Positions 3,001-31,462 of a stretch of 40,318 bases of DNA are shown in pieces. Below the pieces are notes generated by a model. The model saw nothing but the letters and a program-made list of their open reading frames with translations, ran no database searches and had not been told where the DNA came from. The stretch is taken from NCBI GenBank assembly GCA_032718475.1, contig JAUCBJ010005024.1, forward strand, positions 1 through 40,318, written 5' to 3'. Every line of letters begins with the position of its first letter. Position 1 is the first letter of the stretch. This DNA comes from Nemertoderma westbladi (Eukaryota > Animalia > Xenacoelomorpha). Position numbers and translations under genes: made by a program.

Positions 3001-5322
3001 CCACACCCCGTCCCTACCGGCAACCTTAGGGACCATTCGGTGTCCCACACCCCGTCCCTACCAAGGCGGTAACTCTAGGGACCATTCGGTGTCCCACACC
3101 CCGTCCCTACCGACAACCCTAGGGACCATTCGGTGTCCCACACCCCGTCCCCTACCAAGGCGACAACCCTAGGGACCATTCGGTGTCCCACACCCCGTCC
3201 CTACCAAGGCGGTAACCCTAGGGACCATTCGGTGTCCCACACCCCGTCCCCTACCAAGGCGGTAACTCTAGGGACCATTAGGTGTCCCACACCCCGTCCC
3301 TACCGGCAACCTTAGGGACCATTCGGTGTCCCACACCCCGTCCCTACAGGCAACCTTAGGGACCATTCGGTGTCCCACACCCCGTCCCCTACCAAAGCGA
3401 CAACCCTAGGGACCATTCGGTGTCCCACACCCCGTCCCTACCGGCAACCTTAGGGACCATTCGGTGTCCCACACCCCGTCCTTACCGGTAACCCTCGGGA
3501 CCATTCGGTGTCCCACACCCCGTCCCTACCGGCAACCTTATGGACCATTCGGTGTCCCACACCCCGTCCCCTACCAAGGCGACAACCCTAGGGACCATTC
3601 GGTGTCCCACACCCCGTCCCTACCGGCAACCTTAGGGACCATTCGGTGTCCCACACCCCGTCCCCTACCAAGGCGGTAACTCTAGGGACCATTCGGTGTC
3701 CCACACCCCGTCCCTACCGACAACCCTAGGGACCATTCGGTGTCCCACACCCCGTCCCCTACCAAGGCGACAACCCTAGGGACCATTCGGTGTCCCACAC
3801 CCCGTCCCTACCAAGGCGGTAACCCTAGGGACCATTCGGTGTCCCACACCCCGTCCCCTACCAAGGCGGTAACTCTAGGGACCATTAGGTGTCCCACACC
3901 CCGTCCCTACCGACAACCCTAGGGACCATTCGGTGTCCCACACCCCGTCCCTACCGGCAACCTTAGGGACCATTCGGTGTCCCACACCCCGTCCCCTACC
4001 AAAGCGACAACCCTAGGGACCATTCGGTGTCCCACACCCCGTCCCTACCGGCAACCTTAGGGACCATTCGGTGTCCCACACCCCGTCCCTACCGGCGACC
4101 TTAGGGACCATTCGGTGTCCCACACCCCGTCCCTACCGGCAACCTTAGGGACCATTCGGTGTCCCACACCCCGTCCCCTACCAAGGCGACAACCCTAGGG
4201 ACCATTCGGTGTCCCACACCCCGTCCCCTACCAAGGCGACAACCCTAGGGACCATTCGGTGTTCCACACCCCGTCTCTACCGGCAACCCTCGGGACCATT
4301 CGGTGTCCCACACCCCGTCCCCTACCAAGGCGGTAACTCTAGGGACCATTAGGTGTCCCACACCCTGTCCCCTACCAAGGCGGTAACCCTAGGGACCATT
4401 CGGTGTCCCACACCCCATCCCTACCAAGGGGGCAACCCTAGGGACCATTCGGTGTCCCACACCCCGTCCCTACCAAGGCGACAACCCTAGGGACCATTCG
4501 GTGTCCCACACCCTGTCCCCTACCAAGGCGGTAACCCTAGGGACCATTCGGTGTCCCACACCCCATCCCTACCAAGGGGGCAACCCTAGGGACCATTCGG
4601 TGTCCCACACCCCGTCCCCTACCAAGGCGACAACCCTAGGGACCATTCGGTGTCCCACACCCCGTCCCTACCAAGGCGGTAACCCTAGGGACCATTCGGT
4701 GTCCCACACCCCGTCCCCTACCAAGGCGGTAACTCTAGGGACCATTAGGTGTCCCACACCCCGTCCCTACCGACAACCCTAGGGACCATTCGGTGTCCCA
4801 CACCCCGTCCCTACCGGCAACCTTAGGGACCATTCGGTGTCCCACACCCCGTCCCCTACCAAAGCGACAACCCTAGGGACCATTCGGTGTCCCACACCCC
4901 GTCCCTACCGGCAACCTTAGGGACCATTCGGTGTCCCACACCCCGTCCCTACCGGTAACCCTCGGGACCATTCGGTGTCCCACACCCCGTCCCCTACCAA
5001 AGCGACAACCCTAGGGACCATTCGGTGTTCCACACCCCGTCTCTACCGGCAACCCTCGGGACCATTCGGTGTCCCACACCCCGTCCCCTACCAAAGCGAC
5101 AACCTTAGGGACCATTCGGTGTTCCACACCCCGTCTCTACCGGCAACCCTCGGGACCATTCGGTGTCCCACACCCCGTCCCTACCAAGGCGACAACCCTA
5201 GGGACCATTCGGTGTCCCACACCCCGTCCCTACCAAGGCGACAACCCTCGGGACCATTCGGTGTCCCACACCCTGTCCCCTACCAAGGCGACAACCCTAG
5301 GGACCATTCACTGTCCAACACC
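1..5322. repeat. Tandem satellite array, 44-49 bp unit (core CTAGGGACCATTCGGTGTCCCACACCCCGTCCCTACC[AAGG..]GGCAACC), roughly 115 copies, runs off the window start
   Basis: The unit repeats directly (for example CTAGGGACC at 47 and 91, period 44). Variants differ in a short AAGG/AAGGCG(A/G) insert. The last degenerate unit ends near 5322. Confidence 0.98.
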
Positions 5323-6090
5323 AGACAGTTTGCGCTCTGCAGTTCCATCGACTCGTCCCCGACTGCCCACTGACCCGACCGTTTCTCTACCGACGTACTA
5401 CCGACATCCGACGTACAGACTCCCACGTAGGAATGAGTTTTATTATGTTTAGCAAGATGGTCGCTCCTAGCGAATCGTTTAGAACAGTGCTGGCAACTAA
5501 AATTTCGCTCACCTAAAAAGGGATAGACAAATTAGGAAAGTCTTATCAAATAAATAATAAAGATCTACTTGTTTATGACTCTATACGAATATGATCAGTT
5601 TGCGTACCGGTTCAGTGGAGCAGTGACAGTCATCCATAGTCACGGCACTGATGTTACTTTCGCAGTGACAGATAGTCGTTTCTTTGGGTTAGGGTTTCTT
5701 GGTAAGGCCCAGACCTAATTAAAAGTTTCTTTTAACCCGAACCATAAGTCATAACTCATAATCACATAAGTTATGCGGAATTTCGGATATTACCGCCCTC
5801 AGCAGGTCCATGGTAATCCTCGATTAATATGAATTACCAACTGATACAATCTCTCCCAGACTGTTGGTGAATATGTGGCAAATGATGAATATAGAACAAT
5901 ATTGAAAATTGAAAACCCCGATCCAAAAAATCAGGATACCCAGTGCCAATGATGGAATCCCGAAAAGTCTGATATCCGGTTTAAAGTTTAAACACCAACT
6001 TAAGTTAAAAATAGTTAATGCAAATAACCATAAACGAAACACCTAGGCCTAATAAAGTAAAAGTAACATAACTACTTCCATGTGACTAAC

Positions 6091-6272
6091 CAGTATGAGT
6101 CCTCCGGTGTCTCTGTAACTCGTCACTGCGGGTGAACCCCTTCTGACATCCGGTATAATCGCATTGGAACGGTCTGATACCCACGTGAGCCCGTAAATGG
6201 GCCCGCAAGTGCGACGTTTTACCGTAGAGTTTATTACAAATGTAACATTTATGGAGCCTCCGTTGTTCCACC
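6091..6272 (-). CDS. Sp1-4-like: Sp-family transcription factor, exon 5: C2H2 zinc fingers 1 and 2
   Basis: Reads [23 protein letters not shown]...[27 protein letters not shown], containing the Sp signatures GKTSHLRAH and [10 protein letters not shown]. Acceptor ttccacag| (phase 2 matches the upstream exon); donor G|gttagt. Confidence 0.93.
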
Positions 6273-7895: not shown

Positions 7896-9255
7896 ATTTT
7901 TCCTATGCTATAGAGTTGTTCATCTGTATATAAATCCGGGTCTGAGGAAATGTAAGTACAACAGTATACAACATTATACTACAAACATACATTACATGAT
8001 ATATAACCGGGCGCGGGCATGTGGTTAAAGATAAATACCAATATCACAAAGAACTAAAAAGTGTATTTAGTAAGCCATTGTGCAGTAATGACGTTTAATG
8101 GCTAAGGGCACATACACTGTGACTGTAGTACCGATAGCCAGGGTTTTATTTTTTAAATGTACACTGAAAAGTTTATAAATGGTTGGAAAAAAATTAGAAA
8201 ATATAAATTTTGTTTAGGAAACCAAAATAATTTTTCAAACGAATTGAGAAAGTGAAAAGTAGGCCATGCAATTCTGCTGTATTGCATGTTTTCTACTTTA
8301 TTTTTTCATGCCGTAAATCCTGCAATCTTAGGTCCCCCACCTAATAATATTATTATCATTGAAATATTGACCTGATTAGGCCACTCCTACTTTTATTACC
8401 ACTATGGTAAACTAAAGCCATTTTATTGGAAAGGACAAGGAATACTCCACATATTATTATAAATATTATTTTATCATAATAATTAATTATTAACCAATAA
8501 CGCCCGACTATGGCATATAAACAAAGAACTTAAACGGCTTTCTAAATAAAAAAAATACCCCCTTTATTATTTACGCGCATACAATTGTAATTTTTATTAA
8601 CTTATTAGTTAGCTGTTTTAATTTACACAGGTCGCGTTAAATGCCTAAGGTTCCCGGTAGGATAACCACCCGGTCGCACTTGGTCCCCTTCTACTATGAC
8701 CGACTATGAGTATGGTAACTATACCTAACCAATACCAGCCATTATTTTCCATAAGTTTCCTTGAAAAGTGCTTAAGAGATATTATTTGATTTTTTTCATG
8801 TAATCCAGCATTTTGATTCCACAAAACAGGTTGTGAAGAAATAGCTAAGTAAAAAATATTTGTTTAATAATTTAATTTCAATATAATCCACAATGAATGT
8901 TAAATTCTGATTTAAAGTCGGTGTTCTTATTTCAATCTCTGTAGCAAATTAATTTGTTAGTTACAGTTTTAGAAATATTTCTAAACAAGTTTAAGATATT
9001 TAGAAATCATTGTTTTTATTTATAAATTTCATAACATATTTAGAAAAAAAAACCCAGCGCGGTACCTAACGGCAGTATGGTTAAATATGTTTTATGAATA
9101 TGGCATACATTTAGTATAAATATTCAATAATTTAATACGAGTTATATTATTGATCCTTTTTAATGATTTTTGCCTTGCTGAATTATTTCGATTGATATTA
9201 TAGGTCGTTTTAAATAATGTTTCAAAACTCATTATTTTGCTTAATATTATAGGTG

Positions 9256-10462
9256 TGTTCGCGCTTTTGAAGACCTTTAGCAGTTTAACCTGCCAAAATT
9301 TATATGTCTTTTAGTTAATTAAAACACCTTTAGCATACGACAATATTTTATGCTAATAAACAAAACATTAACCGAAGCCAGCCCATGCGCGATCATTCAC
9401 CCGATGGATCTACACCCGGGAGGCTGAATTCGGCTGCTTAAATTTTATTATTGCAGTGTAAGGTTGCAGTGTAAACCTACTGTATTATTCGATTGATCGT
9501 TAATAATTAATTTCTGACAGATATTATTGGCTTTCGGGAAATATTAACAGTTCCTTTAGGACGTGGCGCTCTATCTATTTAAACAGAACTAGGACTTATA
9601 CTAAACGCAACGATAATGCTTATAATTAAAGTATAAGGCGCATTCTTTAGGAAATGCTTTGTTACCAATCACAATCATGTACACTATTCTGCCGACAGTC
9701 AGTAAATTTGATCACACATAAAGAGAGCAGCAATTGACTCATGTATGGTCTGCTAAATAACATTAGATTCAATACACACCACATTGACATAAATCGCAAT
9801 TGTTATATATAGCCTGTCTCTCTAACCTGTAGTGTATCAAGAAAATTGGGAAATTTGGGTGATTTATCAGTATTCTCCAAAGAGCAATATTTCCATCAAC
9901 AAATAGATACAATTAATAACTGACGGTAAATAACAGTACAAACAATATAATTAGTGCAGTTAAATTAAGTGAGTGAGACTAGTTAGTTGATTGATTGATT
10001 AGTAGGATAACAGTTATACTTTCGATAATTTAAGCAGTTTTACTAGAGTTCTTCCCAAAAGCCGGTGGTCTGGCGAAAAATGGGAACACAACAACAGAAT
10101 CATATGAAGAATCATATGACTACCTGACTATACGAGGATACCAACTACCCTTATTCCCCGAAGCTCCCGTCCAACACAGAGGATGAGCATAGAGATAGGA
10201 AATTCAGTTCAGTAGCTCTGGGATAGGTCAAAATCCACGCCCACTCAAATTCTATTGGCCGATACGGACAGCAGGGCTGAAGCAACCTCCCTAAGCTGGT
10301 TGGCCGATTAAACGGAGCCCAGATACCTTCGTACAGCACATCAGCCAATAAGCTGGTAGCTTGCACTATTTTAGCTATAGATCCCTTTTAGAGTATTCTA
10401 GCGACCGGGGGGGAACTGGCCAGCAAGGCAAACGAATCAGTTATCCCACAAAAGCTTTTACA
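9256..10462 (-). repeat. 3' LTR (1207 bp)
   Basis: Plus strand TGTTCGCG...CTTTTACA. Matches 20961-22167 apart from differences seen at 9499, 9594, 9746 and 10304. Confidence 0.97.
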
Positions 10463-10470
10463 CCGCTCCC
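10463..10470 (-). promoter_or_regulatory. Polypurine-tract-like site (GGGAGCGG) abutting the 3' LTR
   Basis: The minus strand reads ...TTTTCTGGGAGCGG|TGTAAAAG, a G-rich tract directly before the LTR TG. Confidence 0.6.
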
Positions 10471-10540
10471 AGAAAATGGGATTTAAGTCTATAAAATATA
10501 CAAAATCACAGTTTCTAAAATATAAAAATACTCTAAACAG

Positions 10541-12778
10541 TTAGTCTTTCTTGCGCGGACGGTGTTTACGCAGTTTTTTAAGGCTAGCAAGAGTCCTTTT
10601 CTCTTTGGGGCGAGCCACTTTACAAGGAGGGCTATAACTCCTGGGTGAAGGGTGCAATATGATTGCATCAGAAGGTATGGGATTACGATCGGTATATCCG
10701 CCGGTCGAAGTACCGGGTTGATTGACATCAACGTCCGGGGAGAGGGGTCTAACGGCTTTGAGAGCTCGTTTCAAGACAGCCGCTCTTACGGGTCCTTTAC
10801 GAGTGGTCTGAACGAGGGCCGTGGGTGGACCATAGGCAGTTAGAAACTTCCTTGGTTTAATGGTTCTTTCCAACTCGCGTTCGTGGGCTCGGTACTCGTA
10901 AGGCCGTCGATATACTTCCTGTAACTCGGGGTGTGAGTTGACAAATAAGTCTCCATAGGCAGGATCTTGACGGATAAAGTTTATTAAGTTGTAAGAATTG
11001 ATGTCACTCGGATTAATGCTCCTGAGAAATTTGCGTACATATTTGGTTGAAATACATTCTCCAACGCGCTTCAGTAGTTCATAACTTGATAGGCGTGATT
11101 TCTGCTCGACGGAGGCAAACAAATAAGGATGGAACGCATAAACTCCTTCGTAAGCGCGTCCAGGGTAATAGCGATGGCGTGAATCACAATGTAAATCAGC
11201 GTTCGCTTCCCAAGCTCTGATATAACGTAGTACAATCATTTCATCTACGCTCTCTAAATCATGATTAAAGGGACAATCAAAGCTGGCGTGTCCTTTTAAT
11301 TGACAATGATGGCATTGAGTCATAAATTGGGGGCAGACAGCAAAAATGTGCAAATTATTAAGCCGACAATATGCACAATAGATTTCCATCGACGGTTGCT
11401 CGTGGAAATAGGAACAGAGATCGTTGGTGTCCATAGACGTAATATGGTCTCTCGATGCGCACAGCCGACAACGTTGTCGAGAAACATAATTGGCATGGCG
11501 ATAATCATACGCAGTAAGACACTGTGGACCTTGATACCATTCCAATATGTAGTCGCTATCGCTACTCCGAGACGTGGGGGGCTGAATCTCTTCAGATTCT
11601 AAACATATGGGTTCGTCTTCCCCTTGTATAGTTGAGGTAGGCATGGCCGTCTCCTCAAGTGGACCTACCGTCTGAATTTCCACGACCGAATAACCTGTGG
11701 GGATTCGAGGTCTTTGGATAACAGAGGAGTGCATGTTTATTATACAAATGTCTTTGAAAATAGCAAATCCAGCGCTATCTAACTTCTCCGCAGCCGAGTC
11801 TCTTAAGCTGAGCTTGGTCAAAGCGCTGTCTTTGAATTGGCTATCCACGTTGCGAAACGGGGTTAAAAACCGTCGGAAACATTCAAAGCGGATGAATTTA
11901 TTATGTTCATCTAGCTTAGCGAGTTTGGTCCCAAGGATTAATGGATGGGCGCGTATAGTACGACTGCACACATCGGCTAGCCAACCGGAAAGTGCGGTGT
12001 TTTCGAAGATCGTGTAGATAGCTAAGGAGGGACGGAGTGGAACACTCATGAAGCTATACACGGCGCCAGGTGCGGTCAACGGTCTGTCAAAGTATAATCG
12101 AGAATAATGGTCTCCGTATACTTGTTGATAGTTGATGGGATTTCCGACCTTGAAATTCCATCCGTATTCCTGAAAGGCAAGATGTCCGATGGAAGTTCGT
12201 TGCACCTTTGTAATGTTGCTAGACGCATTAGCATACATGGTGCGAAAGAAACCTCGGCCTTCGGCCCAAGGAGCTATCAGCTGAGTATCCACGAAAGGAT
12301 AGGGGATATTTTCCATATTCCGAAAGTCGTTTTGGAGATCTCCGTAAACAGCTGAGCCGATTTTAATGATTCTTTCGTTGAATAACATCTCGAGAACGGG
12401 CTGGGGTAACATCGATCCATCGATACCCATGGCCGGTTTGCGTTCGGTGTCAATGACGTAACGCTGCGCGAGTTCGAATTGTCCATGTCGGAGATTCTTT
12501 TGCGTTTCGGTGAGAGTTTCAAAGGAATAATCGATCACGTCGGAACACGCTCGCGTAAACACGTGAGTGGAACCAGCTAATCCGCGTATGTGTATCATGC
12601 GCGTAGTTCCTAATTCTCCGATTGGAACGCTACCTTCGTTATCGTAAGTAACAACGCCATACATCTCAATGATATTAAGAGTTTCATTCCACTCTTTGGT
12701 GGCGTTCTCGAGGGTCATCCCTACTGGATGCCACAAGGTGGCGCATTGATTAGCGTCAGGGAGATCACTATACTTCAT
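10541..12778 (-). CDS. Retrotransposon accessory protein: DEDDy 3'-5' exonuclease-like domain (WRN-exo/EXD/Mut-7/RNase D type), three CCHC-type zinc knuckles and a basic tail
   Basis: ExoI VVTYDNEG; ExoII LPQPVLEMLFNERIIKIGSAVYGD; FVDTQLIA; SIGHLA; ExoIII-like PLRPSLAIYTIFE. Knuckles CRLCASRDH..C, CAYCRLNNLHIFAVC and CHHCQLKGHASFDC. First ATG at 12778 (the ORF track starts at GTG 12802). Confidence 0.75.
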   Translation of the reverse strand: MKYSDLPDANQCATLWHPVGMTLENATKEWNETLNIIEMYGVVTYDNEGSVPIGELGTTRMIHIRGLAGSTHVFTRACSDVIDYSFETLTETQKNLRHGQFELAQRYVIDTERKPAMGIDGSMLPQPVLEMLFNERIIKIGSAVYGDLQNDFRNMENIPYPFVDTQLIAPWAEGRGFFRTMYANASSNITKVQRTSIGHLAFQEYGWNFKVGNPINYQQVYGDHYSRLYFDRPLTAPGAVYSFMSVPLRPSLAIYTIFENTALSGWLADVCSRTIRAHPLILGTKLAKLDEHNKFIRFECFRRFLTPFRNVDSQFKDSALTKLSLRDSAAEKLDSAGFAIFKDICIINMHSSVIQRPRIPTGYSVVEIQTVGPLEETAMPTSTIQGEDEPICLESEEIQPPTSRSSDSDYILEWYQGPQCLTAYDYRHANYVSRQRCRLCASRDHITSMDTNDLCSYFHEQPSMEIYCAYCRLNNLHIFAVCPQFMTQCHHCQLKGHASFDCPFNHDLESVDEMIVLRYIRAWEANADLHCDSRHRYYPGRAYEGVYAFHPYLFASVEQKSRLSSYELLKRVGECISTKYVRKFLRSINPSDINSYNLINFIRQDPAYGDLFVNSHPELQEVYRRPYEYRAHERELERTIKPRKFLTAYGPPTALVQTTRKGPVRAAVLKRALKAVRPLSPDVDVNQPGTSTGGYTDRNPIPSDAIILHPSPRSYSPPCKVARPKEKRTLASLKKLRKHRPRKKD

Positions 12779-13068
12779 GTATCGAGTGGTATACGTCTCC
12801 ACATTTCCATATCATGTAAATCGGTAGGATGGCCGGTAGTTAAGAAGTCCATATACATACCATTACGATTCGTATAGCGAGCGGTGAATTTTCTATAGTC
12901 CAATTCACGCGTAAGTTGTTCCTGGGACATCGGCGGTTCGATATAACGACCATCGTCCTCCGTAATAGTCGGATCGGCTTCACCGCGTATCAAGCTATCC
13001 ACAAACGCTTGTAAAGGTAGAGTATATCGCTCTCTAATACCAAGGTCATCTTCTATCAATTCCGTCAT
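12775..13068 (-). CDS. 97-aa upstream ORF whose TGA overlaps the exonuclease ATG (ATGA); unknown function or a frameshifted N-terminus
   Basis: Open frame from ATG 13068 to TGA 12777-12775; the ATG of the next ORF is at 12778-12776. Confidence 0.5.
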   Translation of the reverse strand: MTELIEDDLGIRERYTLPLQAFVDSLIRGEADPTITEDDGRYIEPPMSQEQLTRELDYRKFTARYTNRNGMYMDFLTTGHPTDLHDMEMWRRIPLDT

Positions 13069-14261
13069 ATCTGCTATCTGAGTTTATTAATATCAGTATG
13101 AGTTAATATTTAGGCAAGCGGGCGTCGCTGCCTACTAGGCTTTGCCCCCGGACAGTGGGTTTCTCAGCGCCGATGTACCGTTGTCGCGGTGTTTACACCA
13201 ACATGTAGCAACAGCACGACAACGATAACCGGCACAAGTCCCACCACTGTCCGTCCCAAAGGCTTGAATCCACTTGAGGTTATCTCGGTAGAGTTAGGGC
13301 TACTTTACAATTGCGATTAGCTACTGTAAACACACTTTAGTAGTAACATTCACCTATAAACGCACAAATTCCATACAATCATTACTTACTGCACACATGC
13401 ATGCCATTTGTCCGTTAATCAGTGTCTTCCAGAATGTCACGTTATTACTATGTACCCTTGGATACTAATAGTGCGCTATGTATACTCTTATGCTACGCAA
13501 TGGGGCAAGCTTTTTATTGTTCCTTTAACTTGCTTCTAATTCTAGCGTGGGTGTTGCCATGGTGACATTATGGAAAACTAGCGGTAGAATTAGGGTAATT
13601 CTCATGCATACAGATCTGGGATGCTATTTAATAGTAATTCTTTAATTGTCAATATCCTCTTTATGCATGATTTTATAAATTTTATCGGCTATTGACTATA
13701 TGTTGGAGATTCTCGCACTCTAGTACACTCAATATGAATCTCCGCTCCCATGATCTATTAATTACTGGAATTTTGGGAATGTTATAAATTGCACAAAATG
13801 ACAATTTATGAAATTCATTTGAATATGAATTTAAATTTATTCCCGTGAATTTTATTATTTGATGTTAAATTGACACAAATTTTATTCCAGAGCATATCTG
13901 GGGACTTAGGATCCTTAATTCTATAAAATAGTCCTCCTAAGAATATCGGTAAATACTGCGATATCTTAATTGACTAGAAATTTTAAAGGATCGGGATTTT
14001 ACAGGTTTTAATAAATATTAAATTAATATTTAGGATGAGCACCGATTTATTCCAGAACTTGTCTGGGGACGTTAACCACTGATTCTAGAATTTGTCTTTC
14101 AAGTATATCGGTGGGTGCCACGATATCTTAATCGACTAGAATTACAGATGGTCAAAAAGTTTAACAGATTTATTTGCGATTTACGCTACTGTTAGAGGGA
14201 CATCACGCTACTATATGTATTATTTAATATAAGGTAGAAGAGCAATATCACACGAAGCAAT

Positions 14262-14425
14262 GTCAGTGTGAAGAGGCAAGTCGTTTCCAAGGTCTACCCA
14301 GAGCTTGGTTTAGCCGAGACACGAGGATCTGAACTTTGCATTCCTAATACTCTGCCTACCAATAATACTTAAATATAGTAGTGGCTTTATTGTACTTTAA
14401 TAAGTACTGACATGTCATCTTACTA
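14262..14425 (-). pseudogene. Eroded remnant of a BEL/Pao integrase C-terminal (DUF5641-like) region
   Basis: Broken minus-strand frames give VLIK...LVGRVLG and CKVQILVSRLNQALGRPWKRLA, resembling VLxK...WPLGRV...VxV...RPxxKL, with stops and a frameshift. Confidence 0.35.
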
Positions 14426-14693
14426 TAGTCTCGCATTTATAATATAATACGGACAGTAAGGAAAGAGAAAAATAATTATTTCTTGCCGTCGCACTAAATA
14501 TATATTATAAGTAATTACGTACGTAATAAACACTAATATATTGCACTAATCTACTAAATAATCGCTAAAATAACATTCTACTAAATAAAATTAAAGAAAA
14601 CGATTATAATAAAATTACGTAATAATACATACATAAATATAAAATAAAAAACAAATATAAAATGATATAGTCACACACCCACTCCATATGTTA

Positions 14694-17600
14694 TTACGTT
14701 ATGGAGTCCCTAGATATTTGTCGGATTAGGGAAGTGGTCGTAGGAAGAGTATCTTGCCTTCCATAGTTTCCGGACAGTTTCCGGTTTCTTTCCCGTAAAC
14801 ATAAACGACCAGCTGGGTGATTGGGTTGTCGTGTTACTTTCTCCGCTCCCTTGGCCTGTCTACTCTCCGCCGTGGTAAGATGAGGAGGCCGTTCATCTTC
14901 TTCTTTACTTAAGAAGTCGGATCCACCTAACCAGCCTGGAGTATCTATCAGTTCTTGAGGAGTTGCTCCTCTGGGATCGATGTCGGCTGGATTAATTGTC
15001 CCAAGGCAATGTCTCCGTTGATCTACATTGGAGTTAATATCGTCATTATCTGAGGAGTATGGTGTTCCCTCAGTTAGTTCGTCCACCTCACTGCTTTCCA
15101 CTTCCCAATCGTTTACTTGATATATTTGTTCGTGTGGCATTCTCTCTTCGAGAGTTCTACGGGAAGGGCCAGTAAAGTACCAACCTACTCTAGTTCTTAC
15201 CGCATAGGTTTGCAGTGGCTGTGGTTGAGCAGGCCGTTTCTCTAATGTTTCGAGCGCCTCGTGCGCGTTTTGGCCGATGAGTATTTGCACTCCAGGGTAA
15301 TCTGTCTGGAATCGAGGTATCTTAAGATGTTGGATGCTCTCATCCTCGTCCCAATTATAAAGGTCTGCTTGAGTAGTAGCAAAGTTCTTTATAGCCACCA
15401 TTTTTACTGACCTTATACCTTGTGTTCCTAACTTATCCTGGGGGGTGGACAACACACCTACATAGTAATCTGCCGTTAGGGTAGATTTCCAAACCTGCAT
15501 AATTCCTGACATATTCAATTTAGTCCGGAACTTGGGTTGTCCAGCAAAGATATCTTCGGCTAGTTCTTGATCGATGAATGTTCCTGTGCTGCCGGAGTCA
15601 AGGAGGGCGTTCACTATGTAGCTTTTGTTAAGACCGTGAACTCTTACTTGAACTACAGGAAATTCTCTGATTCCTACGTTGGAAGCTGGAGCTTTCCAAG
15701 ATGGTTGTTTGGCGAAAGTAGTTGGGGGAAACTCGTCGTTGATGTCCTTTTCGTAAGTAAGTGCTCGATACACTGCGGTATTTATTAGATAACAGGATTC
15801 ATTGGCGTCGGAGAATTCGTCAGTATAGAATCCTTCCATCTCAGACTCTTGATCAGTGTCGTTTACGTCACTAAATTGGACATGTAGTTCGGGCTCACTT
15901 ACCTGACTCAGTTTGTCTCGTTCGAACTCACTGTGTAACAAGATGTGATGTCTCGCGCCACACTTTGCACACTTTATGTCGGAGTAACAGGTTCGCCGTT
16001 GGTGTCCTGATCTGAGGCAATTATAGCATAACCGCTTATTCCACAGGACTGTACGTCTGTCTACAAGGGATTTCTTTAGAAATTCAGCACACGCACTCAA
16101 ACGGTGGGGCCCGTCGCACAGCGCACATTTTGGTTTGATGTTACTCACCTTAACTTGGTTAACGTTCTGCACTCTCGTTCTTTCTTTGGGCTTTCTTCCG
16201 TGAATTCTCTTAGGAGACGTAGGAGGAGTTGTTGTTACCTGTTCTCTCCTGTCACTGGTTCGAGACTTGTATTTACTTACGTCTTTATAGGTCTTGTTGT
16301 CATAGTAAGATTTTGCTGTGTCTTTCCCGCTGTCCTCTTCTTGAGAAGCTTGGCTTTCGCCGTCGTCAGTATAACACACTGGTATTATCCTTCTCCTAGA
16401 AACGGGTTTCTCACTTACCTTATTTTCCGATGTTTTCTCTCTGGACTGCCTTATGAGTTGTAATTTTACTTCACTATCTAAGAAGGACATGAGATCAGCC
16501 ATGGTAGGGCTTCGTCGTTGTTGTTCATTCATGTACAACACCTTTTTGTCCCAGCGTGTACATACTCCACCCTTGGGTAAAGTAGAGACTACGGCTCCAA
16601 TAACCATGGAACTCTGATATTCATGAGACTTACCTAACCAGTCCAATTGTCTACAGATCTCTTGAATTTCATCGGAAAACTCTATAATCCCGCTACTAAG
16701 GAAGTGTCGGGGGGCTACTAATTTTGCATACAAATACTTAGCTATGTTATCCTTGTTACCATACCTGATGTTTAATGTATCCCAAACTTGTCTTAATCCA
16801 TCTGGATGTCCAATAAACTTTAACGCCATTAACTTGGGAGGTCCTTCCAAGCACTTGATGAGGAATCTAAGTTTCTCTCCATTAGATAATACAGAGTTCT
16901 GTATGCTATCTTTGTAATATTCGTTGAAAGGTAACCATTTCATCTCATCTCCATTGAATTTGACGATCTCTCCCACTTTGACCGCTTGGCGGGCTTCTGT
17001 TCTAGCCATCTGACGCGTAAAGCTTTCTTGGGCCATCATGTTATTTAATATCGAATTATCGGTATATAAATTTCTCGGATCATTATCAGGTCTATAGGGA
17101 ATATCATTAATAACAGGTCTATAATCACCCTTAATAGGGTTTGCTATAGGAGTTTCAACTTCACTAGCCGTATAGATGCGTGTAGGCTCCACACCTTGCG
17201 CATGTAATACTTCAGACCTAACAGGTTGACACAATGTTACAGGGGGTATTGGTATGCCCTTTTGTATATTGACTAATTTGTCGCGTTCTAGCGCGATACT
17301 TTGCTGCACTTCTTGCAACTCTGCTCTACCTTCCCTCACTGTTCCCTTAAGTTGGTGGACAGTCTCCTGCATCTGTCCTAGCAGGAGATTCATCCCCCGC
17401 CGTCCCTCTTCCACCCACTCAACCGCCGAAGCGGGAGTCGCCAACATAGTAGCGGGCTGACGCGGGACGATGGGAGACAAATTTTTGATTTCTCTCTCTG
17501 CTATCTGGACAGGGATATTCTCTTGGACTGTTCCACCGGGTACAGGCAGTGTAGTACTATGTAAAGGGAACTTAGAGTTAAGCTCTGGAAGTACAGGGGT

Positions 17601-19337
17601 CTCTAACACAGAAGTGACTTTGGGAACAACAGGCCTAATTATTTCAGGCTCATCAACTATTGTAGGGAGTCTTTTAACCTTAATACTTTGGGCTGTAGGT
17701 TCTACACTACTCAAGTCTGTGCTAGCTAGCTGTCTTCTAACAGCTGGGGGCAAATCAGGCAATTTGCGACGGTAAGATGTTTTTCTACGCCTACTTAGAT
17801 GAGATCTATTTCCTCCGCCTTCAGGATCGGTGGTCTCGCCTTCCTCCGAGGATGTGTATCCCTGGCGCTTGGGAGTATATTTTCTCATCATCTGCATTTG
17901 ATTAGCAGTAAACTGTTTATTTATACTGTCTTGCGTCTCTTGCAGATTTTCCAACTCCAGTTGGATAGTCTCCTCAGAAGCTCTCCGTTCTGCTTCTGCC
18001 ACTGCTGCTTTTCTTTCTGCTTCTGCTTCTGCCGCCTTTCTTTCGGCTTCTGCTTCTGCTTCTGCCGCCTTTCTTTCGGCTTCTGCTTTTGCCGACTTTC
18101 TTTCGGCTTTTGCTTCTGCCGCCTTTCTTTCGGCTTCTGCTTCTGCCGCCGCTGCTGCTGCCACCTTTCTTTTCTCTATCCATTCTTTCTTTACTTGTTC
18201 TTCTCGGACTCTAGTGAGGCGGAGTTTTTCATCACATTCAGCTTGGTTTGCAGCTAACATTTCGGCATCGATTGAGTCCAACACAAGCTTGGTTCCTTCA
18301 CTATTAGGGGAAAGTCCAGACAGCCGTCTCCTCAACTCTTCGTCTCCTAGGAATCGCTGATAGTCGGACAAATAAATGTCGATAGCGTCTCTAGTTCGCG
18401 GCTTCTCGGCGGTCTCTTCGCTTTCCGCTTGAGAAAGGGTGACATCAGTTTGTTCTTCATGGGGTGATCTCTCAGCCAGCTGGGATTTCCACTGGGCCGT
18501 TTCCTGTACTTTGAGATCTACCCGATGTAACCAAGTTTTGACAGCAACCTGCAGCGACGTGTCCTGTCTTCTTTTGGAAGTTTCCTCAAAGGCTGAGAGG
18601 ATTAGTCGTATGCGTAGGGTTCTTTCGCGTATTTGGTATAGCAGCTCTTCCTGCTCTTGAGGTCCTTGAGGTTGTCGAAACAGTTGTTCTTCCAATCGCT
18701 CCAAGGAGCCGAAGAATCCCTGCACATATCCTGCTGCCGACCTCTTCCAAACAGCTGGATCCATTGTATCTTTAGCCACTCCCATCCTGTGTATATCTTC
18801 CCAAGTAGCCTCGGACAGATCCAACGGGAGTCCGAGTCCGGGAAAGTTCCATTGTGACTCGACAATAGACATCAATTCTTCCCTGGCGTATCCCGCATAA
18901 TTATCTTGGGTCGCTCGCTTATTTCTCGCCCAGTCGGCTTGATGTTCCTCCACCGCAATGAATATAGTAGTTAGCACTGCAGCAGGAAGGGTGAGAAGGG
19001 GGTCCGAGTAGACTGTAGCAGCCATCTGCACTCCGCGTTCGGGGGTCAGCTCTACAGTATCCGAACTACTGGAGCTATCGGGTCGCTGGGAAGTAGGTTC
19101 TTGACCAAGATGTTGCTGCGATAGGACAACTGTCTCTTGGTTCCGTTTGACCTGTGCCCGAGTGCCTATGATGGACCTATGGTGGATTAGCCTAGGGTCT
19201 GATACTACCGGAGGGATGACCTTTCTTGCAGTAGGAGGTGAGCTGAACTCCTTTCTTAATCGCTCCACACTCCTATCTGTGTCACAGATGGTTGTATCGA
19301 TCAGACTGTCTGACAGGTTTTGCTGAGTGTCAGACAT
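14694..19337 (-). CDS. gag-pro: BEL/Pao Gag-protease polyprotein (1547 aa), lacking RT and integrase
   Basis: DUF1759-like KFNGDEMKWLPF...EKLRFLIKCLEG. Triple knuckle CALCDGPH..C / CYNCLRSGH..C / CAKCGARHHILLH. Protease ALLDSGSTGTFI, ILIGQ, TRVGWYFTG. RNase H C-terminal remnant RHCLGTINPADIDPRG...WLGGSDFL. No YxDD motif. Confidence 0.93.
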   Translation of the reverse strand: MSDTQQNLSDSLIDTTICDTDRSVERLRKEFSSPPTARKVIPPVVSDPRLIHHRSIIGTRAQVKRNQETVVLSQQHLGQEPTSQRPDSSSSSDTVELTPERGVQMAATVYSDPLLTLPAAVLTTIFIAVEEHQADWARNKRATQDNYAGYAREELMSIVESQWNFPGLGLPLDLSEATWEDIHRMGVAKDTMDPAVWKRSAAGYVQGFFGSLERLEEQLFRQPQGPQEQEELLYQIRERTLRIRLILSAFEETSKRRQDTSLQVAVKTWLHRVDLKVQETAQWKSQLAERSPHEEQTDVTLSQAESEETAEKPRTRDAIDIYLSDYQRFLGDEELRRRLSGLSPNSEGTKLVLDSIDAEMLAANQAECDEKLRLTRVREEQVKKEWIEKRKVAAAAAAEAEAERKAAEAKAERKSAKAEAERKAAEAEAEAERKAAEAEAERKAAVAEAERRASEETIQLELENLQETQDSINKQFTANQMQMMRKYTPKRQGYTSSEEGETTDPEGGGNRSHLSRRRKTSYRRKLPDLPPAVRRQLASTDLSSVEPTAQSIKVKRLPTIVDEPEIIRPVVPKVTSVLETPVLPELNSKFPLHSTTLPVPGGTVQENIPVQIAEREIKNLSPIVPRQPATMLATPASAVEWVEEGRRGMNLLLGQMQETVHQLKGTVREGRAELQEVQQSIALERDKLVNIQKGIPIPPVTLCQPVRSEVLHAQGVEPTRIYTASEVETPIANPIKGDYRPVINDIPYRPDNDPRNLYTDNSILNNMMAQESFTRQMARTEARQAVKVGEIVKFNGDEMKWLPFNEYYKDSIQNSVLSNGEKLRFLIKCLEGPPKLMALKFIGHPDGLRQVWDTLNIRYGNKDNIAKYLYAKLVAPRHFLSSGIIEFSDEIQEICRQLDWLGKSHEYQSSMVIGAVVSTLPKGGVCTRWDKKVLYMNEQQRRSPTMADLMSFLDSEVKLQLIRQSREKTSENKVSEKPVSRRRIIPVCYTDDGESQASQEEDSGKDTAKSYYDNKTYKDVSKYKSRTSDRREQVTTTPPTSPKRIHGRKPKERTRVQNVNQVKVSNIKPKCALCDGPHRLSACAEFLKKSLVDRRTVLWNKRLCYNCLRSGHQRRTCYSDIKCAKCGARHHILLHSEFERDKLSQVSEPELHVQFSDVNDTDQESEMEGFYTDEFSDANESCYLINTAVYRALTYEKDINDEFPPTTFAKQPSWKAPASNVGIREFPVVQVRVHGLNKSYIVNALLDSGSTGTFIDQELAEDIFAGQPKFRTKLNMSGIMQVWKSTLTADYYVGVLSTPQDKLGTQGIRSVKMVAIKNFATTQADLYNWDEDESIQHLKIPRFQTDYPGVQILIGQNAHEALETLEKRPAQPQPLQTYAVRTRVGWYFTGPSRRTLEERMPHEQIYQVNDWEVESSEVDELTEGTPYSSDNDDINSNVDQRRHCLGTINPADIDPRGATPQELIDTPGWLGGSDFLSKEEDERPPHLTTAESRQAKGAEKVTRQPNHPAGRLCLRERNRKLSGNYGRQDTLPTTTSLIRQISRDSIT
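17985..18160 (-). repeat. Coding tandem repeat in the Gag coiled coil (EAEAERKAA)n
   Basis: About six 27-33 nt imperfect units of GCAGAAGCCGAAAGAAAGGCG. Confidence 0.9.
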
Positions 19338-20761
19338 GTTTAGCTATACAGTTGAATGTCTACTACTATAGTTTCAGTTAAAGCAAGTCTAGTAATTCAG
19401 TATGACCGCAAGCCTAGCGATTTATTACCGATACCGTTACTCGGTGTAACGTGATATATATACAATATATTAGAATACCGGTATGCTTATAATATATATA
19501 AGTATTATTACAGACTAGATTTGTCACAGAGTACCGGTATATAATTTTAGCACAAATATATATAAATATATAATAGGCCTATAGTGAATACCGGTATACA
19601 GCTTACACTTATAGTATATATAAGTATAATTATGAACTAGAATTAATTACAGAATACCGGTATGATTTCAGCTCAAATTTATAGAAATAAATATAATAAG
19701 CCTATGGTAAGTACCGGTATGTCAATTATTTTTAGAATAATTGAATTTCTGAATATTTTAGGGTTACTTGGTTACTTTAACTTACTTTATTACCGTTATT
19801 TAAGCAGTAGTCCAACTGATATTGAGACCTAGTTGTTGTATGGCAGGCCTACTATTTATAAATCGTTTGAGTTGATTTATAATAGATATATACCCGTTTA
19901 AATGGGTTTTTTCAATATTTGAAATAAATGTTATTATTTCTGGGGGGTCACTACACAGAAGCTGTGCGCTCTCAGTGAAGTGCTATTTATTTGACACTAA
20001 AACTGATAATTCTAATTTACTTAAGTTACTTAATACTACAAATTACTTACGATATGGGTGAGATTAATTCTCTAATTAAACACAACAAAAATATTACGTA
20101 CGAAATTTTTAGGGTAATTTTACAGGAAGTCTACAAACCAGCCTAACAAAGGGTTAGGTTTCTGGTTATTACAACAGACAGGGTACTACGGTATTTGAAA
20201 ATAATAAGTAGTAGTAAATATACTGTACTGTCCAGATAGGAAAATACCACCGCCTGACGACCTATAACCGTATCGCTATAGGTACTACGTTATGTATCAC
20301 ATAGTTGAGTAATAACTATTACGGTACCTGAACAGACCACACAAACAAACACAGGCTAAAACACTGGCAGACTACGATCAAGCCTAAATAAACTACAGTA
20401 TATGCAGATTCTGAAATAGTTAGTTAGTATGCGTTCTAACACGGTAGTACGACTTATTCTTTAAGAGGGGATTGACCTTACAGCATATGGCTGCCCCAAC
20501 TTACTAACGGCACTTTATCAGACAAACTCTACACACGCCGTAATCTCTCCAAACCCAACAACAGTCAGACAGCAGCTCAGCCTACAATTATCTGAACAAT
20601 CTGAGCAGGGTCACACGCCTTCTGCTCAATATTAGCCTACTAGGAAATAAAACCGACAGAAATAAGTAAAATCTCAATAAAAATTCAGGGCTGCAGTCCC
20701 TGATTAAGTACTAAGACCTACCGGTATACACTAATCAAATTCGAATAATACTAATGTACTG

Positions 20762-20895
20762 ATACAGCAGTACCGGTTAGGACAGTTGGGCCTACAGACC
20801 TACAGAAGTACCGGTTCTGGCAGTTGGACCTACGGACCTACAGCAGTACCGGTTCTGGCAGTTGGGCCTACTGACCTACAGAAGTACCGGTTCAG
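20762..20895. repeat. 38-bp tandem repeat (about 3.5 copies) in the retrotransposon leader
   Basis: ACAG(C/A)AGTACCGGTTCTGGCAGTTGG(G/A)CCTAC..ACCT repeated. Confidence 0.85.
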
Positions 20896-20960
20896 GTTTA
20901 CCGGTCACTACGGTATTTTGCAACCTTATTGCCTACTGCAATAAGATCGATAACTGTTAT

Positions 20961-22167
20961 TGTTCGCGCTTTTGAAGACCTTTAGCAGTTTAACCTGCCA
21001 AAATTTATATGTCTTTTAGTTAATTAAAACACCTTTAGCATACGACAATATTTTATGCTAATAAACAAAACATTAACCGAAGCCAGCCCATGCGCGATCA
21101 TTCACCCGATGGATCTACACCCGGGAGGCTGAATTCGGCTGCTTAAATTTTATTATTGCAGTGTAAGGTTGCAGTGTAAACCTACTGTATTATTCGATTG
21201 ATCATTAATAATTAATTTCTGACAGATATTATTGGCTTTCGGGAAATATTAACAGTTCCTTTAGGACGTGGCGCTCTATCTATTTAAACAGAACTAGGTC
21301 TTATACTAAACGCAACGATAATGCTTATAATTAAAGTATAAGGCGCATTCTTTAGGAAATGCTTTGTTACCAATCACAATCATGTACACTATTCTGCCGA
21401 CAGTCAGTAAATTTGATCACACATAAAGAGAGCAGCAATTGACTCATGTAGGGTCTGCTAAATAACATTAGATTCAATACACACCACATTGACATAAATC
21501 GCAATTGTTATATATAGCCTGTCTCTCTAACCTGTAGTGTATCAAGAAAATTGGGAAATTTGGGTGATTTATCAGTATTCTCCAAAGAGCAATATTTCCA
21601 TCAACAAATAGATACAATTAATAACTGACGGTAAATAACAGTACAAACAATATAATTAGTGCAGTTAAATTAAGTGAGTGAGACTAGTTAGTTGATTGAT
21701 TGATTAGTAGGATAACAGTTATACTTTCGATAATTTAAGCAGTTTTACTAGAGTTCTTCCCAAAAGCCGGTGGTCTGGCGAAAAATGGGAACACAACAAC
21801 AGAATCATATGAAGAATCATATGACTACCTGACTATACGAGGATACCAACTACCCTTATTCCCCGAAGCTCCCGTCCAACACAGAGGATGAGCATAGAGA
21901 TAGGAAATTCAGTTCAGTAGCTCTGGGATAGGTCAAAATCCACGCCCACTCAAATTCTATTGGCCGATACGGACAGCAGGGCTGAAGCAACCTCCCTAAG
22001 CTGGTTGGTCGATTAAACGGAGCCCAGATACCTTCGTACAGCACATCAGCCAATAAGCTGGTAGCTTGCACTATTTTAGCTATAGATCCCTTTTAGAGTA
22101 TTCTAGCGACCGGGGGGGAACTGGCCAGCAAGGCAAACGAATCAGTTATCCCACAAAAGCTTTTACA
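20961..22167 (-). repeat. 5' LTR (1207 bp)
   Basis: Direct repeat of 9256-10462, upstream of the gag ATG on the minus strand. A minus-strand AATAAA lies near 21149-21154. Confidence 0.97.
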
Positions 22168-22954
22168 AGGTGGATTTAAAACATTTTGTCTGTTTAAATA
22201 TTTTGCTTGATATTATTGATTGATTTAAATAACAGTTGACTTATTGACTTATTTCAACCGATAATTATAGGTAGTTTTAAATGAGACAGTTAATTATTTG
22301 GACGTATAATTATATGTCGTATTAAATGTAGCTATTAATTCAGCTGATCTCGCGATGATTAACTTCTCTGCTTCTATACCATGCTTCACTACCGTACCGG
22401 TACCACTGTGCACTGTACAGCTGTACCAGTACTGCAGTATCTGAGTCAGCTGATCACATTTAATACGACCTATAATTATACGTCAAAATAATTCACTGTC
22501 TCATTTAAAACTACCTATAATTATCGGTTGAAATAAGTCAATAAGTCAACTGTTATTTAAATCAATCAATAATATCAAGCAAAATATTTAAACAGACAAA
22601 ATGTTTTAAATCAACCTATAATATTAAGCAAAATAATGCAGTTTTGAAACATTATTTAAAACTACTAATAATATCACTCGTATTAATTTATTGAATATTG
22701 ATACTAAATGTATGCCATATTATGACAAGCGATATTTGGGACCAAATTGATTTAAAACAACTAAGGTCAACAGAGGTGAAGGACGGTTTAATTATTAATC
22801 CTATCTAATGTAAAAAGCAATGGAAGTGCTGCTTGACAGTATGGTTTAAGCACTAATGGTATACGTTATACGAACATTTCGTCTCTGGACTTTTCGTCCC
22901 GGGACGAAACGTCCTAGATCCAAGCATAATACCAGTAGCTACAGATGACCAATA

Positions 22955-30008: not shown

Positions 30009-31462
30009 TCATACTGGGTGCGGATGACTGACGTCTTTAAGTGGCCCCACATCGACTCTATACGTTGAGTGTGAGTGCCAGTCGCACTCACCCACTCTAC
30101 CGAATGGTTGACGGTTTCGTGTATGTAGGTCCCTGTTCCATTGGTGGCAGACAAAAAAAGGGTTAGTGGCGTTTGTTATGTCAACATTCACACCGCAATA
30201 CGCAGGCCATTCGTCGGACTGTATCTTGGTTCCACCGGCGACATGTTTCTCCAAAATAGGGCAGAGGGTGTCTGCATCACGATGCAAATTTTGATGTAGA
30301 GTTCGGGGGAGAAGCTCCACGCTTTGTGCAAACTCAATAGCGCGCTCCTCAGTCTCGATATGTTTCCCTACTAGGATCGGCATGCTGCATTGCAGCTGCA
30401 TTTTTAAGAATGCTGTGCCGGCTTGTCAACAAAATTGCACCGCCACAACTCCCTATCACCCATGACATTTGCTAGATCATCCGCATCTTTAAGGCCAGTG
30501 TCCTTTAAGATGCGTCTCAAGAAAGTCATGGGCTGTCCACCATGCTTATTCACTCCATGAGGCTGCCAAAGTACAAGATTATGCACAGGCTGGTCCTCAC
30601 GGCGAAAGCAATGTCCTGCAAAGCGGAGGCGATTTTGTTCTAGTGTCAAGCTTGGGGGAGCCAATGAGACACCTCCAATGTTATATAGTGTCTGGTTGGA
30701 GATGTGTGCATTGTACTTGACACAATGTACCCGGCGTAGCATTCTTGTGAATGTGCCATCCAGAGATTTGGTGTCCTCAGCAGTTAGAGCCCAGCATGGA
30801 CTCCCGTAGAGGAGTACTGGAACTACTGCTGCTCTAAATAATCGGACCTTAAGTTTCCGATTAATTCTAGGTGACTTCCAAATCCTGGAAAGCCTATTCA
30901 AGGCTGCCCATGCCTTTCCCTTACGTATTCGAAGGTCCTCATCTGACTTCCGGATCCATGATCCCAGGTAACAGAAGTCGTCCACATGCTCAAGCATACC
31001 ATCCTTTGAGCTTATGCTCATCCGATCAGAGACTTGCTGAGGACTTTCAAAGTTAACTGTCAGAATTTTGGTCTTTCTGGAGTTAATAAAAAGACCAACA
31101 CTAGAAGCAGCATGTTCTAATGAGCTGAGGAGCCGCTGGGCTCCCTCTAATGATTCTGAGAGTACTCCTAAGTCATCAGCAAAGTCTAGATCAGTTAGGT
31201 ACTTGGCAGGATTTCCTCGACTTCTGGAGCCAGTAGGTGGAGTTATCATCACCCCATCTTCATTATGATGATCTAAGGACATGCGTAGAACATAGTCAAC
31301 CACAATAATGAACAAGAATGGTGCAAGTGTGTCTCCTTGGAGGACGCCCCATAACACTTCAAATGGTTCTGTGTCACCGTCAACAGTAGACACAAATGTT
31401 GTCGAACCATCGTATACTGATCTGATATGTTTCCCAATCTCAATGAAATTTAATTCAGCCAT
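30009..31462 (-). pseudogene. Merlin/IS1595 (ISXO2-like) transposase remnant interrupted by an RTE LINE
   Basis: RDADTLCPILEKHVAGGTKIQSDEWPAY and HETVNHSVEWVSATGTHTQRIESMWGHLK in shifted frames. The N-terminus MAELNFIEIGKHI|ETEERAIEFAQSVELLP is split by the insertion. Confidence 0.8.
30369..31423 (-). mobile_element. 5'-truncated RTE-type non-LTR retrotransposon (RT C-terminal half), 12-bp TSD
   Basis: GVLQGDTLAPFLFIIVVDYVLR, DLDFADDL, DFCYLGS, RLRFAGHCFR. TSD GATATGTTTCCC at 30357-30368 and 31424-31435. Confidence 0.9.

Follow-up and report, generated by a model that had tools for sequence, protein, structure and literature searches.

What kind of gene has taken the env position of a long terminal repeat (LTR) retrotransposon that lacks its own reverse transcriptase (RT), and what might it do there? 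The question is raised by the stretch of Nemertoderma westbladi DNA analyzed here (contig JAUCBJ010005024.1; the window, 40,318 nt in all), in which a complete LTR element of 12,912 bp occupies positions 9256 to 22167 of the minus strand. Its third gene, open reading frame 3 (ORF3), is, as judged from its sequence, a selected DEDDy-like exonuclease with three zinc knuckles, located in the env position of a non-autonomous element of the BEL/Pao lineage. We hold with high confidence the predicted identity of ORF3 as a real and selected accessory gene homologous to the DEDDy exonucleases.

ORF3 runs from 12778 to 10541 on the minus strand and encodes 745 residues from its ATG without an internal stop, and it finishes 78 bp short of the 3′ LTR, whose first base is 10462. 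The translation and the LTR coordinates bear out the intact frame of this length that a first-pass annotation of the stretch had described. The same frame continues without a stop for another 11 codons ahead of this ATG, as far as 12811, which makes the ATG a candidate start. The features of this part of the element are as follows.

10541..12778, minus strand: ORF3, 745 residues; DEDDy-like exonuclease, acidic linker, three CCHC knuckles, and basic tail
11954..12700, minus strand: exonuclease domain, residues ∼27 to 275
12643 (D46), 12637 (E48), 12340 (D147), 12016 (Y255), and 12004 (E259), minus strand: residues of the exonuclease domain
11273..11470, minus strand: three CCHC-type zinc knuckles, residues 437 to 502, found also in the two homologues described below
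12775..13068, minus strand: small ORF, 97 residues, no assigned family; stop codon overlapping the ATG of ORF3 (ATGA)

The motifs that the annotation had quoted are all present in the order it gave: YDNE (residues 45 to 48), LPQPVLEMLFNERIIKIGSAVYGD (124 to 147), VDTQ (163 to 166), SIGHL (196 to 200), and PL..Y...E (247 to 259), then the three knuckles at 437 to 455 (Cx2Cx4Hx9C), 468 to 482 (Cx2Cx5Hx4C), and 489 to 502 (Cx2Cx4Hx4C), and a tail with 13 lysines or arginines among the final 30 residues. Its D54 and E56 count from a GTG at 12802 and correspond to D46 and E48 from the ATG. Beyond the first 300 residues the protein consists of an acidic linker (pI 4.1), the knuckles, and a basic C terminus (pI 11.3). 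The maximum 19-residue hydropathy of 1.27 indicates no transmembrane helix, and the view that the protein is not an Env stands on this absence of a hydrophobic segment, as judged by a hydropathy scan. An imperfect 14-residue repeat spans residues 233 to 246 and 247 to 260, and is not visible in the DNA (14 of 42 bases identical). A derivation of the knuckles from those of the element's own Gag was considered and found to be unsupported (pairwise E value of 0.074).

The small ORF that precedes ORF3 matched nothing in Pfam, NCBIfam, or PHROG, and three of its four listed sister differences are synonymous. Two AG dinucleotides lie close upstream of its ATG, and a spliced message with coupled translation of the small ORF and ORF3 is possible; a slippery heptamer linking the two was sought and none was found. 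Upstream of the small ORF, a 12-nt stretch at 13317-13318 matches the LTR at ∼9790-9802 in inverted orientation, and one run joins both regions.

The homology of ORF3 with the DEDDy family was explored by profile-profile comparison. The reference alignment held 13 RNase D and polymerase-type exonuclease domains, hand-picked from 36 listed rows plus Escherichia coli RNase D; it contains no eukaryotic host enzymes and so tests the superfamily, not the subfamily. Against these references, a profile of ORF3 and its two homologues gave hhalign probabilities of 88.6 (local) and 86.0 (global, 172 columns), versus 0.15 for the reversed alignment and 1.08 for the best of 60 column shuffles. The global alignment is collinear, with D46 and E48 on Exo I, D147 on Exo II, and Y255 and E259 on Exo III. 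D46 and E48 align with the D-T-E of RNase D and D147 with its Exo II aspartate, and all three residues are invariant in the three proteins. The only two families to match among the 18,950 models of NCBIfam are both RNase D (E values of 0.006 and 0.041, residues 126 to 172); the better model scores 0.006 with the whole of ORF3 and 0.0016 with the domain alone, which is far below the family cutoff. The proposed membership of the wider DEDDy family is upheld by these comparisons. No HRDC domain was matched by Pfam at E values up to 1 in ORF3 or in the two homologues, which sets them apart from the Rrp6/RNase D subfamily, and no helicase or other host domain was detected by Pfam in ORF3.

Searched against solved structures, the family profiles retrieved HIV nucleocapsid knuckles (E value of 5e-4) and, weakly, Egalitarian (0.081), Rrp6 (0.82), and EXD2 (1.7). 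AlphaFold2 returned mean pLDDT values of 29.8 for residues 1 to 336 alone and 30.8 for residues 27 to 293 with a seven-row alignment of three distinct sequences; Foldseek found nothing at an E value of 0.001 or better with the latter, uninformative model.

An exhaustive search of 1.84 billion proteins yielded two matches to ORF3, which we call P0030 (E value of 1e-6, 30% identity) and P0031 (4e-5, 32%), encoded on ENA contigs of 9 to 11.5 kb at the longest. Both have the architecture of ORF3, with the exonuclease motifs, the linker, three knuckles, and a common motif after the knuckles (aromatic-E-x2-A ... R-x-R ... G-aromatic), which may be a further small domain. Between its Exo I and Exo II, ORF3 has 20 inserted residues that neither homologue possesses. 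By language-model features, residues 50 to 280 of P0031 group with PF01612 (DNA_pol_A_exo1) in the Atlas (score 0.94, 26 of 30 matches), and the whole of P0030 groups with PF01612 and zf-CCHC (score 0.86, a lead only). The cluster that combines these two domains has 57 members, most of them from euglenozoans, which suggests that the pairing of exonuclease and knuckles occurs elsewhere too.

Other searches added little. A word-indexed protein search with ORF3 and the family profile A2 gave no match, nor did phmmer with ORF3 against the PDB, where a repeat search gave chance rows of glutamine synthetase only. ORF3 had no match in viral contigs, prokaryote genomes, or PHROGs; one tblastn search of plasmids gave two weak rows (one an RNase D, E value of 4) and another gave none. 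NCBIfam matched neither P0030 nor P0031, and an Rfam search and a tRNA scan gave no match. Two further candidates, L001 and L002, were dismissed as chance: the match in L001 is a short word in a 190-residue ORF, which we take to be peptidase-like in appearance, and the match statistics of L002 are the same.

Is this gene kept by the element or merely carried along? The region is present in six public runs from four studies, and contigs from four of these runs, 80 to 100% identical, reach every one of the 30 bins into which the element was divided. Across 11900 to 12800, which holds the exonuclease domain, 3362, 1100, 12, and 37 contigs were aligned (4511). No small insertions or deletions are listed among them, and three low-depth joints skip 55 to 190 bases, as decayed copies would. 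Among the 40 best-supported of 203 differences, 36 are synonymous, where a share of 0.22 to 0.29 is expected (p < 2e-15), and the four nonsynonymous rows spare D46, E48, D147, Y255, and E259. This excess of synonymous differences shows that ORF3 is an old and selected part of the family, and the purifying selection among copies indicates that it matters to the element. In the whole-element alignment, 15 of the 24 rows listed for ORF1 are nonsynonymous (4 of 5 within its pol remnant), and between 14694 and 17000 the window departs from nearly all sister contigs at many listed sites. The Gag-protease thus looks less constrained than the exonuclease domain, the two lists having been chosen differently. 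The family appears to be very abundant: in one run, single contigs reach depths of 4,900 to 6,200 beside others at ∼28, although depth is not copy number.

The element that carries ORF3 has near-identical LTRs of 1207 bp each (four mismatches, 0.33%) that begin with TG and end with CA, and it is flanked on both sides by the 5-bp duplication AGGTG, which together indicate a recent insertion by an integrase.

20961..22167, minus strand: 5′ LTR, 1207 bp, TG...CA, 99.67% identical to the 3′ LTR
9256..10462, minus strand: 3′ LTR, 1207 bp
9251..9255, plus strand: target-site duplication AGGTG, left copy
22168..22172, plus strand: target-site duplication AGGTG, right copy
10463..10471, minus strand: short purine-rich tract seen in the sequence, flush with the 3′ LTR; from its position, likely the plus-strand primer site
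14694..19337, minus strand: ORF1, 1547 residues, BEL/Pao Gag-protease, from the DUF1759 and BEL/Pao polyprotein matches and the blastp map
14886..15032, minus strand: in-frame pol remnant, from the stretch after RNase H (ORF1 residues 1436 to 1484 versus 1171 to 1219 of the polyprotein P0001)

ORF1 matches Pfam DUF1759 above the cutoff (E value of 8.3e-12), and its aspartyl-protease match is weak. With residues 770 to 1450 as the query, 29 matches were obtained among 3077 candidates, and by their Pfam lists all are BEL/Pao-type polyproteins (28 carry PF05380 and the remaining one PF05585 and PF03564). In the blastp alignment with the best of them, P0001, ORF1 residues 1222 to 1390 fall on 488 to 648 and residues 1436 to 1484 on 1171 to 1219. 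Since ORF1 skips from residue 648 to 1171 of P0001, it lacks about 500 residues that contain RT and RNase H. With all 29 BEL/Pao proteins as tblastn queries, no trace of an integrase came up downstream at E values up to 1. RT, RNase H, and integrase are therefore absent from the present copy, in agreement with its earlier description as pol-less, and the Gag and protease homology, together with the TG...CA LTRs and the target duplication, sustains the proposed linkage of ORF3 to a BEL/Pao-lineage LTR element. On these features, and not on RT phylogeny (the pol criterion), the element is filed here as a non-autonomous derivative of that lineage. A loose contig end at 14995 was at one point taken as proof of pol-bearing sisters and was withdrawn; the 22 letters concerned, inside the remnant, also occur in the window.

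How such an element would prime its reverse transcription bears on what ORF3 might do. BEL/Pao elements have an 18-nt primer site for tRNA-Arg or tRNA-Gly according to the ICTV profile (PMC8742986). Here, no such site was found and the 40 nt after the 5′ LTR contain no TGG. Two features stand out in its place.

20950..20960, minus strand: position of the primer-binding site; a near-palindromic 11-mer that abuts the 5′ LTR, lacks TGG, and is the complement of LTR positions 446 to 456
21712..21722, minus strand: candidate self-primer in the 5′ LTR (LTR positions 446 to 456); the same stretch lies at 10007 to 10017 in the 3′ LTR

Immediately downstream of the 5′ LTR, 11 nt are perfectly complementary to LTR positions 446 to 456, and the last pair of the duplex falls on the base that adjoins the LTR, as the geometry of a minus-strand primer requires. 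When the LTR was shuffled with its dinucleotides preserved, 11 nt of complementarity at offset 0 came up in 2 of 3000 trials, and among the 10,487 internal 11-mers, 6 find a complement in the LTR. In folds of ∼860 nt begun at positions 440, 445, or 446, starts picked so as to include the candidate stretch, the pairs of the duplex have probabilities of 0.67 to 1.0. Neumann et al. (PMC6317226) define self-primers by at least 10 bp of complementarity starting 0 to 5 bp after the LTR, and the present site, with 11 nt complementary to the LTR directly after it, bears this Tf1-type signature. The primer of Tf1 is, in the accessible parts of two reports, an 11-nt piece released by RNase H (PMC7175516, PMC4600332), and another arrangement that dispenses with tRNA is described, in part of a further source, for the fungal GalEa elements (PMC5445492). 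The signature is that of one copy, was noticed after the TGG had been found absent, involves a near-palindromic site, and has a start site that is a candidate. We conclude that the element probably does not use a tRNA primer; a half-tRNA primer may be an alternative, the host tRNA set lying outside the search. Because the 11-mer is near-palindromic, priming through an RNA dimer may be another. An 8-bp hairpin follows the 11-mer, and a second 10-nt stretch (20935 to 20944) is complementary to the LTR at the AATAAA signal.

What, then, would the protein do? Our leading explanation, held tentatively, is that ORF3 is an active RNA exonuclease acting on the ends of the element's own RNA. It is an accessory gene of a multicopy BEL/Pao-lineage family, kept among sister copies, and its protein would come from a message of its own or from one shared through coupled translation. 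The zinc knuckles would tether a 3′-5′ exonuclease to the element RNA, presumably inside its particle, and RNA 3′ ends would be trimmed during replication, with D46, E48, D147, and E259 binding two metals despite the Exo III glutamate. Among its candidate targets would be the self-primer, at its 3′ end, if this pairs with the LTR-complementary 11-mer in the position of the tRNA site. The present copy would need RT, RNase H, and integrase from another copy. We regard a catalytically active domain as probable and, among the cases in which it is active, the element's own RNA as somewhat the better candidate for its main target. This account is favored because the acids are conserved in distant homologues, the knuckles are nucleocapsid-like, and the RNA may need a trimmed primer end; the lack of a tRNA primer site lends some circumstantial support to the trimming of RNA or primer ends. 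For the DEDDy ORF3s of rotifers, Rodriguez et al. proposed 3′-end processing of element RNA in the available part of their paper (PMC5408684).

Several observations weigh against this account or the evidence behind it. The Y-x3-D of a canonical Exo III is not found. The imperfect 14-residue repeat allows two registers, Y241-x3-S245 in the first repeat and Y255-x3-E259 in the second, of which only the latter supplies an acid; the register is unstable in three of five alignments, two of the five favor the first repeat outright, and two place the Exo III of the homologues on Y241 and S245, where there is no acid. The Y255/E259 register is preferred because the YTIFENT stretch runs on into a helix matched in P0030. 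The Pfam exonuclease model does not match ORF3 itself, for which Pfam gives a weak knuckle only, and an HMM of the 13 references scores ORF3 at a low 5.9 bits, versus 1.5 for the best of 200 shuffles. Choosing differences by their support inflates the synonymous share, although this choice would not by itself create a synonymous excess under neutrality; the selection evidence covers the exonuclease domain, and in the whole-element alignment two of the three rows listed for ORF3 are nonsynonymous. The host relatives EXD1 and Maelstrom work without catalysis, as stated in the available part of PMC5408684, the primer of Tf1 is made by RNase H cleavage with no exonuclease in the part of PMC7175516 at hand, and the substrate assigned to ORF3 is itself inferred. 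By its Exo III, ORF3 is classed here as a DEDDy-like protein rather than a strict member of the family. The first-pass annotation had read the glutamate at Exo III as a possible alteration of activity. The glutamate is indeed there, and it is shared with P0030, while P0031 has aspartate, so that the position is acidic in three proteins that are ∼30% alike. On this comparison it is a family variant and does not point to damage in the present copy.

The alternatives differ in what they make of these same acids and knuckles. Counter-defense, in which the protein would degrade or bind Piwi-interacting RNAs (piRNAs), small interfering RNAs (siRNAs), or their precursors, or compete with factors of the EXD1/Mut-7 type and so shield all copies, is possible but rather unlikely. 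EXD1-like proteins are among the nearest named look-alikes (feature score of 0.77 for P0030, a lead only), the apparent abundance of the family fits such a role, subject to the caution that applies to depth, and a silencing-related role was raised for the rotifer ORF3s (PMC5408684, available text). The same text reports no clear correlation of the rotifer DEDDy ORF3 with copy number and finds such elements still covered by small RNAs. Nucleocapsid-like knuckles fit binding of the element's own RNA equally well. We consider unlikely, by analogy with Egalitarian, an adaptor whose domain would have little or no catalytic activity and would bind or localize RNA. Egalitarian is an RNA-binding and localizing adaptor, and it is the best non-knuckle structure for profile A2; the Exo III glutamate with its unstable register and the 20-residue insertion absent from both homologues point the same way. 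Against this, inactive domains usually lose their catalytic acids, whereas here the Exo I and Exo II residues are invariant and the Exo III position is acidic throughout. The rotifer ORF3s also have an aspartate-to-glutamate swap, yet were judged possibly active (PMC5408684, in the text available).

An enzyme acting on DNA, which would trim cDNA ends or flaps as WRN-type or proofreading exonucleases do, is very improbable. The K-I-G before Exo II resembles the motif that precedes Exo II in WRN and EXD-type enzymes more than the K-x-x-H of RNase D; CCHC knuckles with a basic tail, however, suit RNA binding, and the best family-library match is RNase D. The DEDDy enzymes do include single-stranded DNA nucleases, as noted in the accessible text of PMC5408684. 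Almost no credence can be given to ORF3 as a host gene acquired recently or as a passenger evolving neutrally. The annotation had allowed for a recent capture absent from sister copies, and this is contradicted by the presence of ORF3 in many sister contigs, down to 80% identity and in four runs, with the synonymous excess described above, and by the lack of a close relative among the 1.84 billion representatives or in the word-indexed search.

A more specific form of the own-RNA account joins the exonuclease to the priming signature, namely, that a BEL/Pao family no longer primes from tRNA and brings along an enzyme of its own for primer maturation. We find this combination quite improbable as it stands. 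In this scheme, the 5′ end of the RNA would anneal to the 11-mer next to the LTR; cleavage of the long loop would then expose a 3′ end, which the knuckle-tethered exonuclease would shorten as far as the duplex to give a primer that abuts the LTR. If true, LTR reverse transcription would have a third mode of initiation, and exonuclease ORF3s a first assigned function. The co-occurrence of the gene with the self-priming signature yields, in any case, one sharp and testable hypothesis.

The closest precedent is found in bdelloid rotifers, where DEDDy ORF3s with a DEED motif occur in Juno, Vesta, and Terminons (Athena), activity not being shown in the available text of Rodriguez, Kenefick, and Arkhipova (2017, PMC5408684); this confirms the precedent cited by the first-pass annotation. 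By that published description, the two cases share a young LTR element whose env position is taken by a DEDDy ORF resembling RNase D, the lack of the transmembrane and coiled-coil features of env, and one aspartate-to-glutamate change. The rotifer carriers, however, belong to the Juno, Vesta, TelKA, and Mag clades, whereas the pol-less copy described here is BEL/Pao by Gag-protease homology. The motif is D-E-D-E here and DEED there, three CCHC knuckles are fused here and a Cys-His-Cys motif is mentioned for some rotifer ORF3s only, and purifying selection is observed here among sisters, whereas the rotifer study, in the same part of its text, tested env and GDSL ORFs only and found neutral variation. 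The host exonucleases of PF01612 (EXD1, EXD2, Egalitarian, Mut-7, and WRN types) share the collinear Exo I to III and give the weak structure matches to Egalitarian, EXD2, and Rrp6, but ORF3 is only remotely similar to them and has the triple knuckles fused.

With the self-priming of Tf1 and sushi elements, as partly described in the sources above, the element shares 11 nt directly after the 5′ LTR that are complementary to an LTR stretch and the absence of a tRNA-type site. Tf1 of Schizosaccharomyces pombe differs, by the same partial description, in being Ty3/gypsy and in having a primer that is the mapped 5′ end of the RNA, released by RNase H, where the element here has a candidate start only; the near-palindromic site and the exonuclease gene are also unlike Tf1. 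Compared with the Belpaoviridae (PMC8742986), the Gag and protease, the LTR at the upper end of the 0.2- to 1.2-kb range, the short purine tract, and a third ORF in the env position agree. The absence of RT, RNase H, integrase, and a tRNA-Arg/Gly site, the length of 12.9 kb versus 4.2 to 10 kb, and a third gene that is not env-like do not.

In their available portions, reviews cite Rodriguez et al. alone for exonuclease cargo (PMC6338049, PMC6431247) and a BEL/Pao survey mentions env as the extra gene (PMC3118150); an exonuclease is not mentioned in PMC12440569. The literature searched, where the slash in "BEL/Pao" is unsearchable and subscription journals, Repbase, and supplements lie outside the search, yielded no BEL/Pao element that has an exonuclease gene or primes itself. 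In that literature, printed exonuclease third genes of LTR elements come from bdelloid rotifers only, as genes without an assigned function. The BEL/Pao carrier, the lack of HRDC, and the joining of an exonuclease with a self-priming signature set the present element apart, and the case adds another superfamily, another type of exonuclease (three knuckles and no HRDC), and purifying selection. The repeated gain of an RNA exonuclease by unrelated retrotransposons would suggest a shared need, either to finish RNA ends or to blunt small-RNA defense.

The element interrupts a hairpin-type repeat: the sequences on its two sides (9097 to 9250 and 22168 to 22721) match each other in inverted orientation at 78 to 91%. 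Elsewhere in the window, a satellite array of ∼115 copies of a 44- to 50-nt unit fills positions 1 to 5310. Fragments of non-LTR retrotransposons lie at 30404 to 31462 and 36293 to 37150 on the minus strand, among them an RT-like ORF (RVT_1, E value of 1.2e-10) and a second, diverged copy, and at 32009 to 34031 on the plus strand, where translations point to a broken endonuclease/RT-like element. An uninterrupted ORF of 370 residues at 38888 to 40000 on the plus strand belongs to the Asparaginase_2 family (E value of 5.7e-77) and is probably a host gene.

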